A DNA stretch of 64,000 nt from Nitrospirota bacterium (GTDB lineage: Bacteria > Nitrospirota > JACRHL01). The translations under genes were made by a program, and so were the position numbers. Positions 26,575-60,112 of this stretch are shown piece by piece (the stretch's first letter is position 1; each line of letters opens with the position of its first letter). The stretch spans positions 321,178 through 385,177 of the forward strand of contig JACRHL010000003.1 of assembly GCA_016212085.1 (NCBI GenBank). Reading direction: 5' to 3'. The notes beneath the pieces are model-generated. The model was not told the DNA's origin and did not search any database. It worked only from the letters and a program-made list of their open reading frames with translations.

Positions 26575-26652
26575 ACCGCTGGACGGTACAGACCGAGACG
26601 CCCCCCGAGACGACGCCCCGCCCGGCGCCCCCGCGCCCCAGCCCCCCCGGTC

Positions 26653-26742
26653 CGCCGGCAGCCTGCCGGACAATTCCCTGCCCGACGGCAGCCCGCCGGA
26701 TGATTCGTTTTCCGACGGCAGCCTGCCGTTCGGGCCCCTGCG
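26653..26742 (+). repeat. three tandem 30-bp direct repeats, each with a near-palindrome GGCAGCCTGCC
   Basis: Units cgccggcagcctgccggacaattccctgcc / cgacggcagcccgccggatgattcgttttc / cgacggcagcctgccgttcgggcccctgcg. Confidence 0.6.
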
Positions 26743-26947
26743 CTACCGCATCGACCGCCGCGAGATCGCCTATTTAAGCTCCCTGTTCGAGTCCTACGAG
26801 GACCTGGGCGCCATCCGTACCCTGGACCCGGTGGCGGCGATCATCGAGGTTCTGTATGCTCCGGATTGCTACGCGGACGTGGTGGCGTTGATGACGGCGC
26901 TGGAGGGGGAGGTGGAGAGCCTGGAACGGATGCCACCGCTCCCGTAG
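26738..26947 (+). CDS. small conserved-looking ORF (DUF4911-like) lacking a canonical start codon
   Basis: Protein-like translation ...YRIDRREIAYLSSLFESYEDLGAIRTLDPVAAIIEVLYAPDCYADVVALMTALEGE...; no in-frame ATG/GTG/TTG upstream; CTG at 26738 proposed; family assignment from memory only. Confidence 0.3.
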   Translation: MRYRIDRREIAYLSSLFESYEDLGAIRTLDPVAAIIEVLYAPDCYADVVALMTALEGEVESLERMPPLP

Positions 26948-26968
26948 GCTGGCGCTGAATGAAATGAA

Positions 26969-27023
26969 GCCCAACGGTTCGGGGTTGCCGACGAACCATG
27001 AACGGGAAACGGGGGTGTTGGGC
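26969..27023 (+). other. attC-like site (candidate): GCCCAAC ... GTTGGGC
   Basis: Perfectly complementary 7-mers matching integron core consensus RYYYAAC / GTTRRRY, 41 bp apart, at the left boundary of the low-GC island. Confidence 0.3.
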
Positions 27024-27089
27024 TTCGCGTTGCATGCGCCAGAAGCTCGTCGATACAACGCTCCAATCGCCTGGGGATGGGAGATGGTC

Positions 27090-27815
27090 ATGAAGAAACT
27101 TGAAATTAAGAACTGGGACGGATTTTCGGGCAAGATCAGCGAAATTGAAAAGGATGCCTCGGAAAACAGCAACGCCATTCGGCTATTCCGAGGGGTTACC
27201 GATCATCAACATAACCTAGTCCCGAAAATCGGGAGACCCGGCGCGCGGAAGAATCCGGCAGATGGGACGCAACTGTCCCATTGCAAGGATGAAGAGCGTA
27301 AGATGTTGGAACTGTTCAAGAGGACGGCTCTTCCATACCTTCCATATCAGCCCAGGAATGATCTGGAGTGGCTTGCCGTTGCCCAACACCACGGAGCGCC
27401 GACCCGCCTGATTGACTGGACGGAAAGTCCCCTGGTTGCAGCGTATTTCGCGATGGAGAAGGCTGGCACGGAGGGGCAGCCGGCGATCTACGTGCTTTCC
27501 GGGACTGCGGAAGCCCCGGAGAAACTAGTTGACGAAAAGCCGGATGTCTTCTCCTGGACCGAGACGTACTGCTACCGTCCGCCACACATCAGTCCCCGTA
27601 TCCAAGTTCAGCGGAGCGTGTTCACCATACACCATTGTCCTTCGTCGGAGTTCAATCCAGATAACCTTGAAAAATGGGTGTTCCCGAAAGGTCCAACGTG
27701 CTTCGAGATCAAACGCATACTTGATCGTGTGGGCTTTAACCGAGCATCCCTATATCCAGATTTACAGGGGTTGGCAGAACACGTCGGATGGTGCTACAAG
27801 TGGGGCCGCTTCTAG
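27090..27815 (+). CDS. FRG-domain protein
   Basis: LFRGVTDHQHNLVPKIGR and AQHHGAPTRLIDWTESPLVAAYFA motifs characteristic of the FRG domain; ~47% GC versus ~70% background; ATG 27090 with gggag RBS. Confidence 0.7.
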   Translation: MKKLEIKNWDGFSGKISEIEKDASENSNAIRLFRGVTDHQHNLVPKIGRPGARKNPADGTQLSHCKDEERKMLELFKRTALPYLPYQPRNDLEWLAVAQHHGAPTRLIDWTESPLVAAYFAMEKAGTEGQPAIYVLSGTAEAPEKLVDEKPDVFSWTETYCYRPPHISPRIQVQRSVFTIHHCPSSEFNPDNLEKWVFPKGPTCFEIKRILDRVGFNRASLYPDLQGLAEHVGWCYKWGRF

Positions 27816-27880
27816 TGGCAAGTTGGGGTTCGCTCCGCTCTGCCAAACTTATATAGCTTTTCCAACTGGGAAACCGTGCT

Positions 27881-28276
27881 TTGAACATCCACGCAATCAC
27901 CGTCTCAGCCGTTAGGATCGCTCTAGCTGCTCTCATGTGCGGCGGATTGGCATCTTGCGTCCATACACGAAGTATCACCTACGAAACGACCGACAGGCCG
28001 CCGAAGCCACAAGACCGATTGATCGGGATCGTGGACTCCCAAACCGTTACTAGGCCATTCACGATCATCGGTGTTGTAGAAGGAAACGCCGGGAAGCTGC
28101 ATAGTGTCGTGGATACGTTGGAAAACCTCAAGCGTGCGGCTCGGCGGATGGGCGGCGACGCCTTGATGGATATTCAACACGGGCCCAAGGGGGGTGTGGC
28201 AGTGCCCTTCGGAAGCGGCTATGCCTATGGGAATTTAAGGGAAATCTGGTCAGCGAAAGTGATTATCTGGCAGTAG
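27881..28276 (+). CDS. putative lipoprotein (hypothetical)
   Basis: Signal peptide with lipobox LASC; ~55% GC; TTG start at 27881 (uncertain); weak resemblance to the YbjQ-like fold only. Confidence 0.4.
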   Translation: MNIHAITVSAVRIALAALMCGGLASCVHTRSITYETTDRPPKPQDRLIGIVDSQTVTRPFTIIGVVEGNAGKLHSVVDTLENLKRAARRMGGDALMDIQHGPKGGVAVPFGSGYAYGNLREIWSAKVIIWQ

Positions 28277-28279
28277 CCC

Positions 28280-28347
28280 GTTGGGCAGAGCAACGCGAAG
28301 CCAAACGCCACGGTGGCCACCCGTGGCACTCCGGGAAGGCGTTGGGC
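28280..28347 (+). other. attC-like repeats at right boundary of low-GC island
   Basis: GTTGGGC (28280-28286), GCCAAAC (28300-28306), palindrome gccacggtggccacccgtggc, GTTGGGC (28341-28347); the 17-mer GTTGGGCTTCGCGTTGC recurs inverted relative to the left boundary. Confidence 0.3.
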
Positions 28348-28451
28348 TTCGCTACACTCTTCCCAACCTACAATTCGCGCTCTATGGGCGCGCCGATTTC
28401 CCCCTCATAGACGTCCGGTTTTGCGCCGAACCCGGAGACACCCAACCTCCC

Positions 28452-54641: not shown

Positions 54642-55027
54642 CGGTGTGCTTCCTCAACTGTATCCCTGGCGGCCGGGGCCCCATCACCCGCCCGTCGCCA
54701 CCCCGATCCCGAAAATTTTCGTGTATTATTACACGTTCCCGGAACGATTCCCCAACCCGTGCCGTTGGGGAGATGCATGCCGCGCGCCCGGCCGGACTCG
54801 GACAACGGAATGTCCGATCCGGCGCCGGCGCCGTTCAAGATTGCACGGTCGGCGCCCGTATTCGCGACGGGCGGCGGGCCCGCCGCCCGCGCTGCGCGGC
54901 CGGTCCGGCACCTCGCCGGACCCCGAACCGGGGTGGCATCCCCATTGCTATAACACTGCACCCGGTTCCCGGCCGGCCAGGATGGCCACCAGGGAATCCC
55001 TTCTCAAGGAAACGCCGCAAGGACGCC

Positions 55028-57121
55028 ATGCCGCCGCTTCACGCCACATCCTTCCCCGTCGTCGGCCCTCCATCACGGGCACGGAGGGGGGTGTATTTTT
55101 TTCCGGCGGGTGGCGGCATTTTGGCATTGCTGCTGATCCTATTGTTGCCGGCGCCCCTGTGGGCCGCCTCCATCAGCCTGACCTGGAGCCCCAATCCGGA
55201 GCCGGACCTGGGCGGCTACATCGCCTCGTACGGTATCGCGAAGGGCAGCTACACGGCCCACCAGGATTTTGGCGGCGCCACCCAGGGCAGCCTGAACGGG
55301 CTGACGCCGGGGCAGACCTATTACGTCGCCCTCAAGGCCTACGACCAGAACGGCAACCAGAGTGCCTATTCGGACGAGATCCGGCTCACCGCGCCACTGG
55401 TGGATGACACGCCGCCCACCCTGGTGACGGTGACCACCCCCAACCCCACCACCGTGCTGGTCACCTTCTCCGAGCCGGTGGACCCGTTGCTGGCGGCGGA
55501 CCCGGCCCACTACCTCATCGACGGCATCGTGCAGCCGGTCTCGGCGGTGCCGGGGGCGGACGGCCTCACGGTGCGGCTGACCACCTTCGTGCAGTTGCAC
55601 GGCCAATCCCATGCGGTTCAGGTTAACGGCGTGGCGGACGCGGCCGGCAACCCCATCGTGACCATAAGCCGCGCCTACACGGTGGACCTGGGGCTGAGCG
55701 TGACCGTTTCGGCCCCGGCGGGCCATGCGGTGGCGCCGCTGCTCGCCGGCACCTCCCTGTATGGCGATGCGGACGTGCCGGTGGCCGATGTGGCGCCGGA
55801 ACTCACCGGGGCCATGCTGGTGCAAACCCTTCAGGCGGACCGGGCCGGCACCGGCACCGACCTCCTGCACCTGTCCGTGGACCGGGACGCCCTGCTGTTC
55901 GTGGCCTACGACCCCCTGGCCGCCACCCCGCCGGACTGGCTCACCGGCGCCTTCGTCCCGGCGGGGGCGGGGCCGGCGGGCGCCGGCGGCGCGCCGCTGG
56001 CCCTGTGGGCGCGCAACATCCCTGCGGGCGGCATCATGCTGGGCGGCAACGGCGGCCCCGGCGCCGTGAACCCCGGCGATCAGTACGCCGTGCTGGCACT
56101 GCCCATGGGCACGGAAACCACCCCCTGGGACGCGGACGGCGACACCATGCCGGACACCTGGGAGCAGACCGTCGGGCTGGACCCCGCGCGCTTCGACGCC
56201 CATGCGGACGCCAACGGCGACGGCCTCACGAACCTCCAGGCCATGTGGCTGGGAGCCGACCCGCTGGCGTCCCCCGCCGGCCCGGCCCCGGCGGGCAACC
56301 GCGCCCCGCTGGCGCTGCTGGACGACACGGTGGTGGCCACCGCCGGCCAGCCGCTGACCCTGGACGGCGGCGCCAGCGCCGACCCGGATGGCAACCCCCT
56401 GTCCTTCGGCTGGGCGCAGGCCGCCGGAACCGCCGTGGACCTGACCGGGCAGGGCACGGCCACCGCCACCTTCACGCCCGCCGCCGCCGGACTGTACATA
56501 TTCCGCCTGACCGTGTCCGACGGCCACGCGGCGGGCGCCACCACCGTGTACGTGGAGGTCTACGACAGCGTCGTCACCAGCCTGCCCGCGGCCACCGAGG
56601 GCTCCCTGGCCGTCACCCAGGGCACGCTGGCGGGTGCCGCCCTGGACCTGTTCCCGGGCGCCCTGGACAAGCCGCGCCAGATCGCCATCGGCGAACGGGC
56701 GCTGCCGGCGCCCCTGCCCGCCGGGCACGAGGCGGCGGGGCCGGTGCTGCACTTCTCCCCCTCCGGCGTGACGCTGCTGACGGCGGGCGTGGTGCAGGTG
56801 CCATACGCCCCGCCCGGGGACGCGGAACCGCTGGACACGGTGCGGGTACTCATGTGGTACGACCCCGCCCTGGGCGCCTGGACGGAACTGGCCGGCGCCG
56901 CGCAGGACGCCGACACGCTGGATGCGGCGGTGGACCGCCTGGGCACCTTCGTGGTGAGCAAGACCCGGCTCACCACGTCCGGGGCCGGGGGGGGGTGCAG
57001 CGTGCTGGCCACGGCCCCGACGGGCCCGGCGGACGCGGCCCCCCTGTTGCTGCTGCTGGCGCTGATCGCCTTGCGCTGGATATGGCACCGGGCGCGCCGC
57101 CTGGCCGCCCGCCAACCCTGA
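55028..57121 (+). CDS. secreted multidomain protein (FN3, Ig-like, Ca-binding DxDxDG repeats, PKD) with C-terminal Cys/Gly-hydrophobic-Arg anchor
   Basis: Signal peptide; FN3-like [30 protein letters not shown] repeats, PKD-like block; C-terminus [41 protein letters not shown]. Confidence 0.7.
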
Positions 57122-57173
57122 CCCGCCGCCCGGCCCGCCGCGCCATCGCCCGACGGCGCGTTTCAACCGCCCG

Positions 57174-57611
57174 CTAGAACTTGTGCTTGGTGATGGCGCG
57201 GTACAGCACCAGGAGCAGGAAGAAGGTCATCACCACCACCTCGATGCCGAGGATGAAGTAGCTCATCTTCTTGTCCCGGCGGTGGCGCTCCGCGTCCAGG
57301 TCGCCCGGCTGGTTGGGGGGCGGCTTGACCGGGCCGGCCTGGCGCGCCCGCTCCTGGGTGGCGCCCCGGCCCACGGAAACCCAGCGCACCCGGTCGTACT
57401 CGCCCTTGCTGACGGGGTCCCTCAGCACCGCGTAGGCGCGGTTGATCTCCTTGCAACGCTCCGTGGCCCACTCCTTGTCCGGGTGCAGGTCGGGGTGGCA
57501 CGTCTTGGCCAGGCGCTTGTGGGCCCGGGCGATGTCGTCCGCGCTGGCGCCGGGGGACAGGTCGAACAGGACATAGTAGTCGTTGTTCGGATCGTAGTGG
57601 ATCTCGCTCAC
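57174..57611 (-). CDS. J-domain (DnaJ-like) protein with C-terminal transmembrane helix
   Basis: DYYVLFDL...CHPDLHPDK...INRAYAVLRD (HPD motif), C-terminal TM YFILGIEVVVMTFFLLLVLY; GTG start with ggaaagg RBS; 26 nt downstream of VWA gene. Confidence 0.65.
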   Translation of the reverse strand: MSEIHYDPNNDYYVLFDLSPGASADDIARAHKRLAKTCHPDLHPDKEWATERCKEINRAYAVLRDPVSKGEYDRVRWVSVGRGATQERARQAGPVKPPPNQPGDLDAERHRRDKKMSYFILGIEVVVMTFFLLLVLYRAITKHKF

Positions 57612-57636
57612 GCGGGCCCTTTCCGGCAAAGCCGCC

Positions 57637-58827
57637 TCAGCCCATGCCGCCGGCGGTGAGCAGGGGGATCTTCTTGGCGTCGGAGAGCGCCTCGAACTCC
57701 GACTCCAGCACCCGCACCTCGGCCACCGGGGTGAACTTGCCGCCGGTGACCTCGGCGATGCGCCTGAGCAGCGGCTCGTCATAGCTGACCCGGTTGCGGG
57801 CGTCCTCGCGGCCCACGCCGATGGTATCGATCACCACGCCCATCATCTTGGCCTTGAAGGCCAGCTCCAGCACCAGGTCGCTGCCGGTGGTGGTGGGGCA
57901 GCCGTCGGAGAGCAGAATGGCGCGGCGCAGGCCGCCGGCGTCCGCCAGCAGCTCCAGCGTGTATTCCAGCCCCTCGAACATGGCGGTGCGGCCATAGGGG
58001 GAGAGGCGTCCGGCACGGGCACGCAGGCGCGGGAAGTCGTCGGACGGCTCGCACACCAGTTCGCACGCCTCGCCAAACGTGACCAGCCCCACCAGGTCGT
58101 GCTCGCGGGCCCGCGCCTTGCTTTGCAGCAACCGGTCGATGGCCTCGCGGGTGGCCCGCATCTTACTGGCGCGGAAACCCAGCGCCTCGTCCATGCTGCC
58201 GGATGCGTCGATGAGCAGCACCAGGGTTTCGTAGGGGACGATCTCGATCAGGTCGCCGATGGCCACCTGGAGCATGCCGCGCGCCATGGGGTTGAGGCGC
58301 GCCACCGCCTCGTCCCCATGGGCACCGGCCTCCACCCGGGCCGGCACCTGGGTGACGCCCGCCTTGATGTTCACGTAGTCGCCCACGGACAGGCCCAGGT
58401 TGTCGCGCATGCGGTGCGACAGGCGCACCAGCGGCTCCGCGTCGTGCTCGTCGCCCTTGATGGCGGACGCCACCTCGAGGGGGATCGCCGAGCTGGAGAT
58501 GGGGGTGGTGTTGATGAACGCCTGCACCGTGTGGCCCAGTTCCGCCCCGAGCAGGATGCGGGCGCGGGGATTGAGGCGGATCAGGTCCTTGCCATCGTCG
58601 GTGCGGGCCGAGATCGCCACCCGGCAGTTGACCGAGCGGCCGCCGTAACTCACCTTGAGCACGCTCCCCGCCACCACGTTCAAGCGCTTGCGCAACGATT
58701 CACACAGCCGGGCCTTGGGGATGCGGTCATCCGCGTCCTCGCGGAATCCCGCCGCGACCGTCAGCGCTGCCTCGGGCGGCGCGAGCGCGCTCCCCCGCCG
58801 GCCGGAAAACACCTGCAGAAATTTCAT
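57637..58827 (-). CDS. VWA-domain protein with two N-terminal Cdc48-N/AbrB-like beta-barrel domains
   Basis: MIDAS DASGSM ... SDG ... DTIGVG in C-terminal half; tandem N-terminal repeats (RLNPRARILLGAELGHTV / RLNPMARGMLQVAIGDLI); GGAG RBS. Confidence 0.75.
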   Translation of the reverse strand: MKFLQVFSGRRGSALAPPEAALTVAAGFREDADDRIPKARLCESLRKRLNVVAGSVLKVSYGGRSVNCRVAISARTDDGKDLIRLNPRARILLGAELGHTVQAFINTTPISSSAIPLEVASAIKGDEHDAEPLVRLSHRMRDNLGLSVGDYVNIKAGVTQVPARVEAGAHGDEAVARLNPMARGMLQVAIGDLIEIVPYETLVLLIDASGSMDEALGFRASKMRATREAIDRLLQSKARAREHDLVGLVTFGEACELVCEPSDDFPRLRARAGRLSPYGRTAMFEGLEYTLELLADAGGLRRAILLSDGCPTTTGSDLVLELAFKAKMMGVVIDTIGVGREDARNRVSYDEPLLRRIAEVTGGKFTPVAEVRVLESEFEALSDAKKIPLLTAGGMG

Positions 58828-59107
58828 GGGCGCTCCACTCGGGCGATGTATGCCCGATTTTAGGGATTGCCGCGTAAGGAGTCAAAACCCCCCGTCCACC
58901 CCGGCCGCCGGCGGGGGGCGATCCCGGGGAAATTGTTTTCCCCGGCGGGGGAACGCCACTTCCCATCGGGATGCGGGCCGGCGGCCGGGGCCGGGGGATA
59001 AAGGTCATAAAATGGTGTTTTTCAAGGCGTTTTTATCCGCGCCTGGAACGGCCCGGTGCTTGCTTCCCTCCATTGTAAACAATGTGTCCCCAAGAGATCG
59101 GTTGCAT

Positions 59108-59380
59108 ATGATGCGTTTGTCGTTGTTGCCCGGCACCCGTCCGCGGGACGGGAGGGGCCAGTCACCCGTGCGGCCCTGCCCTCGATCCCCCCTGCCGCCC
59201 ACCGTGCGGAAGGCGCTTGCCATCACCGCCCTGGCCGCCGCCGCGGCCCTTGGCACCGTGGCCCTGCCGCTGGCCATGAACCAGGGGGTGCCGCCGGCGC
59301 CGTCCTCGGCCTATCGGGACGCGGCGCCCGGCCAGCATACGGTGGTCCTGCACGCGGACGGCACCCTGTCCGTCTGGTAA
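59108..59380 (+). CDS. hypothetical small secreted/membrane protein
   Basis: 90-aa ORF with central hydrophobic segment (ITALAAAAALGTVALPL); no family recognised; weak support. Confidence 0.25.
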   Translation: MMRLSLLPGTRPRDGRGQSPVRPCPRSPLPPTVRKALAITALAAAAALGTVALPLAMNQGVPPAPSSAYRDAAPGQHTVVLHADGTLSVW

Positions 59381-59488
59381 CCCGGCCCCGGGCCCGCCGG
59401 CCGGCCCGCATCCCGGCTCCCCTCGCATTACGGGCCGCCGTTCGCCGATAATGGGTCGACGGCGTCCTGCCGCCGGTTTGGAGTTCCC

Positions 59489-60112
59489 ATGCGCGACGAC
59501 CCCTTTGCCCCACCTCCCGGCCACCGTCCGGCGCCGTTCACGCCGGCGGGCCTGTACCTGCCCCCCGGCGCCCCTCCGGCGGGACGGGCCGCCGTGGCGC
59601 CGCGCCGTCCGCCCGGCGACGCGGGCTACCCGTTCGATCCGGTGCGGGACACGGCGGTGCCGCGCCCGGCCGGCTTCTTCCGGCGCGCCCTGGCCTTCAT
59701 GGCCGACCTGCTGGTGGTGGAATTCATGGCGGTCATGCTGGGCAGCGTGGCCACCATGGGGCAACTGCTGTCCGGCGACGGGGTGGTGGTGGCGGAGAGC
59801 GCGCAGGAAACCTCGGTGATGTTCGCCGCCCAGGCGTTTCCGCTGCTCGGGTTCTGCTACTTCTTCTTTTTCACCGCCTACGGCGGCCGCACCCCCGGCA
59901 AGATGCTGCTGGGGATGCGCGTGGCCACCGTCGATGGCGAGGCCCCCGGCTGGCGGCGCTCCCTGGCGCGCACCCTGTGCTACCTGCTGTCGGTGCTCAC
60001 CTGGGGCATCGGCTTCCTGCTGGCCATGGGCCCCGCCAAGCGCGCGCTGCACGACCGGCTGACCGGCACCCGGGTGGTGCTCACCACCCCGCCCGCGGCG
60101 GCGCCCGGATGA
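59489..60112 (+). CDS. RDD-family membrane protein
   Basis: Pro-rich N-terminus then RDD-type TM core (FFRRALAFMADLLVV ... GRTPGKMLLGMRV); GGAG RBS. Confidence 0.75.
   Translation: MRDDPFAPPPGHRPAPFTPAGLYLPPGAPPAGRAAVAPRRPPGDAGYPFDPVRDTAVPRPAGFFRRALAFMADLLVVEFMAVMLGSVATMGQLLSGDGVVVAESAQETSVMFAAQAFPLLGFCYFFFFTAYGGRTPGKMLLGMRVATVDGEAPGWRRSLARTLCYLLSVLTWGIGFLLAMGPAKRALHDRLTGTRVVLTTPPAAAPG

Follow-up and report, generated by a model that had tools for sequence, protein, structure and literature searches.

A conserved two-gene operon of Nitrospirota joins a DPBB-VWA protein to a predicted tail-anchored J-domain protein

Which task would bring together a protein with a von Willebrand factor A (VWA) domain and a J-domain protein with a membrane anchor when the two are encoded side by side? 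The question was raised by a locus in a 64,000-nucleotide stretch of DNA, here called the window (contig JACRHL010000003.1, positions 321,178 to 385,177), which belongs to a 448 kb contig of a Nitrospirota metagenome-assembled genome (MAG). A first-pass annotation had described a two-gene unit on the minus strand with the J gene starting 26 nt downstream of the VWA gene. Both open reading frames (ORFs) were confirmed at the coordinates first given, with 25 nt between the VWA stop codon and the J start. The VWA protein corresponds to NCBI MBI5136070.1, which is named just 'VWA domain-containing protein'. The two genes were kept together in every non-identical locus with enough sequence to judge. 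Reasoning from domain content and from analogy with known systems, we propose with middling confidence that they may form a dedicated Hsp70 co-chaperone operon, by which DnaK would be brought to clients bound by the first product, a double-psi beta-barrel (DPBB)-VWA protein, at the inner membrane. The genes and the signals in front of them are as follows.

57637-58827, minus strand: gene 1, a predicted cytosolic DPBB-DPBB-VWA protein of 396 aa (Pfam, AlphaFold2 model, no transmembrane (TM) segment)
57174-57611, minus strand: gene 2, a class-C J-domain protein with a predicted tail anchor, 145 aa, GTG start (Pfam, homologue alignment, hydropathy)
58857-58885, minus strand: sigma-70-type promoter, TTGACT, 17-nt spacer, TAAAAT, 10 of 12 matches, about 30 nt 5' of the VWA ATG
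58833-58836, minus strand: ribosome-binding site GGAG, 5 nt 5' of the VWA start codon (sequence read directly; GGAG in 5 of 6 loci)

The promoter scan returned one site where 0.1 was expected from shuffled sequences. TTGACA and TAnAAT stood in register in five of the six aligned upstream regions, while the remaining bases were not conserved. Since the hexamers and the GGAG were kept in register in 5/6 otherwise divergent regions, the pair has its own promoter, and since the genes share a strand, are 25 nt apart and have one conserved sigma-70-like promoter 5' of the VWA gene, they read as an operon with a conserved sigma-70-type promoter of its own. A simple scan of 56900-59600 found no intrinsic terminator 3' of the J gene. 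The intergenic region between the divergent VWA and RDD genes (58828-59488, 660 nt) is unusually long for a compact genome of 70% GC; the VWA promoter was the one element recognised there, and the region gave no Rfam match. No Rfam families or tRNAs were found across the entire window by an Rfam search and a tRNA scan.

Is the pair more than a local accident? The gene 1 family was searched for among 5.8 billion clusters at 90% identity, of which about 60 belonged to it. The two-barrel type to which gene 1 belongs made up about 30 of them, every one from metagenomes or from MAGs of Nitrospirota, Leptospirillia or Nitrospirales; a one-barrel type from Spirochaetota accounted for about 27, and beyond both types there were just generic VWA matches. 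The J-protein family had 25 detectable members, and for at least 10 of them the length of the contig coincides with that of a VWA match. When 19 non-identical VWA loci of the J-linked type were compared, an HPD-containing J ORF was present at -23 to +116 nt from the VWA stop in 17, and the remaining two ran into contig ends, one of them (L090) keeping a J-like N-terminus 5 nt downstream. Co-conservation across genomes had been posed beforehand as a check that could refute the pairing; the pair was kept wherever this was assessable, that is, in 17/17 non-identical loci with enough downstream sequence, in at least five differing flanking contexts and in three divergent lineages.

The flanks of these loci varied. 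Upstream lay an RDD pair, lactamase_B or pilin genes, and downstream a large surface protein, phage portal/terminase genes or a cupredoxin-like gene. When 10 loci were compared all against all, the VWA and J genes proved to be the only ones that every locus had. A third obligatory gene was rejected on the same 10 loci, as none was universal (RDD pair in 5, lipoprotein in 6, 160-aa protein in 4, MsrB in 3). Homologues of the lipoprotein, the 160-aa protein and MsrB were found nowhere in the window; the recurrent neighbours lie at the following positions of other loci.

L004, 7634-7993
L092, 7634-7984
L091, 11221-12129
L093, 8404-8814
L010, 5508-5921

The lipoprotein recurring in six loci has a conserved C-terminal domain of about 180 residues. 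In some related loci a cupredoxin-like gene extends the operon, with an overlap of 22 nt with the J gene; elsewhere MsrB and a CopZ-type zinc-finger protein are encoded at a distance of 1-4 kb from the pair. The RDD-family membrane protein of the window (59489-60112, divergently transcribed) accompanies the pair in five of the ten loci and is missing from the other five.

Two genes may also travel together while serving separate functions: here, a J protein of a general membrane type, as DjlA is, might simply be co-transcribed with a VWA protein that has nothing to do with it. Nitrospirota that are related to one another supply most of the examples, and among them gene order is kept by synteny alone. 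However, the pairing outlasts complete turnover of both flanks, and it was kept in lineages with 34-39% identity, among them a low-GC organism and one whose N-terminus is built differently: a second Nitrospirota lineage (L089) with 39% identity retained the J pairing, as did a lineage (L090) in which a helical N-terminus is followed by one DPBB. Moreover, the J family was found only beside this VWA family. The VWA-J pairing is not chance, and we consider independent functions very unlikely.

The first protein was analyzed domain by domain, as listed here.

58516-58773, minus strand: double-psi beta-barrel 1, residues 19-104 (AlphaFold2 model)
58234-58485, minus strand: double-psi beta-barrel 2, residues 115-198, counterpart of the single barrel in one-barrel relatives
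57679-58230, minus strand: VWA domain, residues 200-383, with the metal ion-dependent adhesion site (MIDAS) D207-x-S209-x-S211 at 58195-58209 and T281 and D308 completing the site

Pfam matched CDC48_N twice (E 3e-13, best stretch 119-200) and VWA_2/VWA over residues 202-366 (E 3e-13 and 1e-9). A confident AlphaFold2 model built on 31 homologues (predicted local distance difference test score, pLDDT, 83; predicted template modelling score, pTM, 0.71) contained two successive b1-b2-a1-b3/b4-b5-a2-b6 units, which are internal duplicates of each other, and then a Rossmann-like VWA domain. In the PDB, the gene 1 family profile matched DPBB sequences of Cdc48/VAT (1e-13 to 1e-9). The tandem Cdc48-N-like domains of the first-pass annotation were thus upheld by Pfam, by the PDB profile matches and by the model, and so was its C-terminal VWA domain with an intact MIDAS: D207, S209, S211, T281 and D308 were invariant in 31 aligned homologues from both clades. 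Neither a signal peptide nor a TM segment was found in the gene 1 protein. A phmmer search with residues 1-201 against 1.84 billion representatives gave 10 matches only, arguing against a large hidden family of such N-terminal barrels and against J-VWA fusions.

The same annotation had labelled the barrels 'swapped-hairpin/AbrB-like', and this label was wrong. The AbrB/MazE swapped-hairpin barrel has a chain of about 50 residues and forms only as an intertwined dimer. The barrels of gene 1 are single-chain units of about 85 residues, no AbrB/MazE swapped-hairpin protein occurred in the top 60 matches, and profile and model together assign them to the Cdc48/VAT N-type DPBBs. No Pfam match to the second beta-clam subdomain (CDC48_2, PF02933) or to an AAA+ domain was obtained in the gene 1 protein. 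A Cdc48-family ATPase was rejected for gene 1, in whose model the order is barrel 1, barrel 2, VWA domain; the N-type domain is borrowed only. Might the pair instead act in anti-phage defence or another conflict, as toxin and antitoxin, or as a DNA-binding regulator of the AbrB/MazE kind? The barrels are related to AbrB/MazE, and some relatives gave weak MazE_antitoxin Pfam matches. One homologue is annotated as regulator/antitoxin by the Joint Genome Institute (JGI), and L002 has genes for a phage portal and a terminase at a distance of 2 kb. Those phage genes, however, were not conserved at other loci. PADLOC had no match for either protein or for the Spirochaetota pair, and a defence or mobile-element origin was rejected, since nothing came back from PADLOC, from IMG/VR or from the phage and plasmid searches. 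We regard this explanation as extremely improbable.

What does the second gene encode? Two features were located in its product.

57393-57581, minus strand: J domain, residues 11-73, with the HPD (residues 39-41) at 57489-57497
57201-57260, minus strand: predicted C-terminal TM helix, residues 118-137, mean Kyte-Doolittle hydropathy 2.59, followed by an 8-residue tail

Both had been named in the first-pass annotation, and both stood. Pfam DnaJ covered profile positions 1-63 of 63 with an E value of 5.5e-16. H39, P40 and D41 were invariant in 23 sequences, and the helix-II motif KRLAK was also conserved. The J domain shared 38% identity with that of E. coli DnaJ over 65 residues without a gap. 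The best NCBIfam matches were to models of DnaJ, CbpA and related proteins (TopJ), with HscB models far lower. The parts that mark classes A and B (G/F region, zinc finger, C-terminal client-binding domains) are absent: DnaJ was the sole Pfam family in gene 2, and the NCBIfam DnaJ-model matches spanned just the first 76-90 or so positions, the remainder being a variable linker and the TM helix. This Pro/Arg-rich linker leads to a conserved juxtamembrane D106-P-E-x-H-H-R-D-R. A C-terminal TM helix was present in 13 of 13 non-identical complete Nitrospirota J ORFs. By these features the gene 2 product is classified as a class-C, predicted tail-anchored J-domain protein. A longer ATG-initiated ORF (57174-57782) was rejected, as it overlaps the VWA gene and the homologues all begin at the aligned MSE/MSD position. 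Glu124 (57240-57248, minus strand), in the middle of the tail-anchor helix (G-I-E-V), is nearly invariant, which suggests that it pairs with a basic residue of another membrane protein.

The one-barrel relatives offered a second view of the family. The Spirochaetota DPBB-VWA protein is about 40% identical to the J-linked type and has the same invariant MIDAS. In every locus with enough upstream sequence (8 genome and about 30 metagenome loci; L006-L008, L012-L017, L026 and L108-L145), a gene of the PAC2 family (proteasome assembly chaperone 2; Pfam E 1.5e-32) lies directly upstream, and a rhodanese gene usually lies downstream. The PAC2 partner has no C-terminal HbYX proteasome-docking motif, and Spirochaetota are, to our knowledge, a phylum not known for proteasomes. 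Like the Nitrospirota pair, this is a tight two-gene unit in which an orthologous DPBB-VWA core is joined to a partner from a chaperone family; unlike it, there is one barrel instead of two, and PAC2 stands upstream where the J protein stands downstream. PAC2 and DPBB-VWA constitute an undescribed conserved gene pair. The same core is tied to two chaperone-family partners, and no other indirect evidence speaks as strongly for a role of the family in proteostasis or protein assembly. The first-pass annotation had not recognised the VWA-J arrangement as a described one, which agrees with our reading of the literature, where no report of a DPBB-VWA protein or of its pairing with J or PAC2 proteins was found (the survey of Barriot et al. 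2020 was not covered).

A further element shared by the two clades is a short terminal peptide of hydrophobic and basic residues.

58792-58827, minus strand: N-terminal peptide MKFLQVFsGRRg of gene 1, a hydrophobic core followed by a basic pair (conservation, model)

These first 12 residues are nearly invariant, with M1, K2, F3, L4 and G9 invariant, and they were unstructured in both models (pLDDT <50). Similar peptides stand at the N-termini of two other VWA proteins, the divergent one of Nitrospirota (MKNFLTLFRGKK) and that of Spirochaetota (MG[LI]FxKK). Two more are C-terminal: one, strictly conserved, closes the PAC2 partner of the Spirochaetota protein (...EYEDRFLDLFG[KR][KR]N[LM]), and the other, which is amphipathic, closes the J protein without a TM helix in L139. 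The related terminal motifs lie at 5940-5971 of L006 and at 1738-1830 and 3010-3067 of L139. The hydrophobic moment was 0.06 for the window peptide versus 0.27 for the MinD membrane-targeting sequence taken as a yardstick. Such a motif may serve to bind the membrane, to be bound by DnaK or to occupy the DPBB groove as a ligand.

If the peptide were a DnaK-binding site, the VWA protein would itself be the client: the membrane J protein would load DnaK onto MKFLQVFsGRR, and DnaK would then govern how a DPBB-VWA oligomer assembles, comes apart or associates with the membrane. Such a role would fit a peptide that is invariant yet unstructured in both models and a J protein without any other client-binding domain. 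The composition of the peptide, a hydrophobic core with a basic flank, also seems to fit the DnaK-binding motif reported by Ruediger et al. in 1997. However, related terminal motifs are found at the VWA N-terminus and the PAC2 C-terminus of the Spirochaetota clade, which has no J protein, and this points to a J-independent role of the motif. We consider the VWA protein as client unlikely.

How, then, might the two products act together as a co-chaperone system? A J domain with an intact HPD stimulates ATP hydrolysis by Hsp70, and class-C J proteins direct Hsp70 to particular sites or clients. VWA/MIDAS proteins of the prokaryotic cytoplasm usually act as adaptors, linking a remodelling machine driven by ATP with its target, for example in MoxR-VWA pairs, and in Cdc48/VAT the DPBB is the module that binds substrates and cofactors. 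The proposal of a dedicated DnaK-targeting operon combines this background on J domains, VWA adaptors and DPBBs with the precedent of tail-anchored J proteins. The gene 2 product would sit with its tail in the cytoplasmic membrane and its J domain in the cytoplasm, where it may stimulate Hsp70 ATPase activity, namely ATP hydrolysis by the housekeeping DnaK encoded elsewhere. As this J protein lacks a client-binding domain of its own, client recognition is proposed to be supplied in trans by the gene 1 product, which would have to contact it. The Cdc48/VAT-type barrels of gene 1 may bind peptides or adaptors, and its VWA domain may clamp an acidic residue of a partner through the intact MIDAS metal site. 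In this way the pair would bring DnaK remodelling activity to one or more particular clients at the inner membrane face.

Several observations weigh against the co-chaperone proposal. The Hsp70 partner is assumed: a tblastn search of the window and of 24 J-linked loci, with the DnaK nucleotide-binding domain as query, detected no Hsp70, and no GrpE gene was found in the window or any related locus. The conserved neighbours suggest no client. The promoter is sigma-70-like and not of the heat-shock type, giving no hint of stress regulation. The Spirochaetota clade never has a J neighbour, so that the DPBB-VWA protein has no intrinsic need for Hsp70. In the low-GC locus L139 the VWA and J genes share 23 nt, and the J product lacks the TM helix; because of this partner, the stable element is taken to be the VWA-J link, with the TM anchor typical and not universal. 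Finally, the family has been seen in uncultured organisms only.

An adaptor at the membrane could also serve the building of a membrane complex. By analogy with the MoxR-VWA pairs NorQ/NorD, CoxD/CoxE and CbbQ/CbbO, the pair might be an assembly or cofactor-insertion factor for a respiratory or metal-handling membrane complex, with the J protein and DnaK in place of the AAA+ motor. The hints of this are neighbours related to copper and oxidative stress, which are not universal. Those neighbours, however, are not in the window and are not conserved across all loci, and Pfam copper-binding matches were merely 'weak' or 'faint'. Nor is there a MoxR/AAA+ gene nearby; no AAA+ gene, MoxR-type included, was found within 6 kb on either side in the neighbourhoods examined. 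We judge such an assembly role distinctly unlikely.

It is J-domain proteins that direct Hsp70 to its sites and substrates, and very few specialised class-C J proteins of bacteria have a known client or partner. If the co-chaperone proposal is true, client recognition outsourced to a separate MIDAS adaptor would be a new wiring of Hsp70, and the Cdc48 N-domain barrel would have a bacterial, AAA-independent role. A trans-acting adaptor of this architecture within a specialised J-protein system would be novel, and its distribution is narrow. The PAC2-linked sister clade suggests that the adaptor can be re-plugged into different chaperone systems, and through it bacterial PAC2 proteins become approachable from genomes for the first time in organisms that are not known to have proteasomes. 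A broader and tentative idea, about which we are quite doubtful, is that DPBB-VWA proteins may be an unrecognised bacterial family of proteostasis adaptors, the counterpart of Cdc48 cofactors and Rpn10-type receptors built from the same two domain types. They would be coupled to Hsp70 through a membrane J protein in Nitrospirota and to a PAC2-type assembly chaperone in Spirochaetota, with the terminal peptide as a common docking or membrane-targeting element. The family is rare and confined to uncultured lineages, and the value of these proposals is that of a testable hypothesis, not of an established mechanism.

Around the pair lie housekeeping genes, including those for TrpS, an epimerase, an M23 peptidase, TldD/PmbA, DnaE, AccA, GuaA/B and SdhA. 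Convergent with the J gene, a large surface protein with fn3/PKD/Big domains is encoded on the plus strand at 54644-57121. Its C-terminus consists of GGGCS, a hydrophobic helix and an Arg-rich tail and resembles a sorting signal of the MYXO-CTERM or rhombosortase type; NCBIfam models of myxosortase- and rhombosortase-dependent M36 proteins matched near the C-terminal end of the protein, at the C-terminal end of the models. Downstream of accA the GC content dips at 26600-28450 (0.615 vs about 0.70), and no ORF there passes the codon-position GC filter.

Which known systems come closest? The tail-anchored class-C J proteins DjlB and DjlC of E. coli, which partner HscC, have an N-terminal J domain, a single C-terminal TM helix and a cytoplasmic orientation, and have been proposed to bring Hsp70 to the inner membrane face (PMC8215388). 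Their genes lie near hscC, and between their J domains and those of the DnaK co-chaperones identity is only 23-25% (PMC8215388). The gene 2 product likewise has an N-terminal J domain and a single TM helix at the extreme C-terminus, but DjlB/C are much larger and have a middle region, whereas gene 2 encodes 145 aa. No Hsp70 is linked to gene 2, whose invariable neighbour is the DPBB-VWA protein. Since no hscC is linked and the J domain is DnaJ-like (38%), gene 2 is not a DjlB/C orthologue.

For gene 1, the likeness to Rpn10/S5a, the VWA ubiquitin receptor of the 26S proteasome, is at the generic level of the VWA domain; ubiquitin-interacting motifs (UIMs) are absent from gene 1 and a proteasome context from the window. 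The N domain of Cdc48/p97/VAT, found also in PEX1, NSF and the mycobacterial Cdc48-like Msm0858, is accompanied by a beta-clam and AAA+ domains, neither of which is present in gene 1, where instead two tandem copies of the barrel are joined to a VWA domain. The MoxR AAA+/VWA pairs (NorQ-NorD, CbbQ-CbbO, CoxD-CoxE, RavA-ViaA, the BatA/BatB operons and BchI-BchD) have an AAA+ partner, whereas the partner here is a J protein, an Hsp70 cofactor, and their VWA families carry other domains where gene 1 carries Cdc48-type barrels. In its proposed role the Nitrospirota pair would nevertheless parallel the VWA proteins that couple MoxR AAA+ ATPases to their targets.

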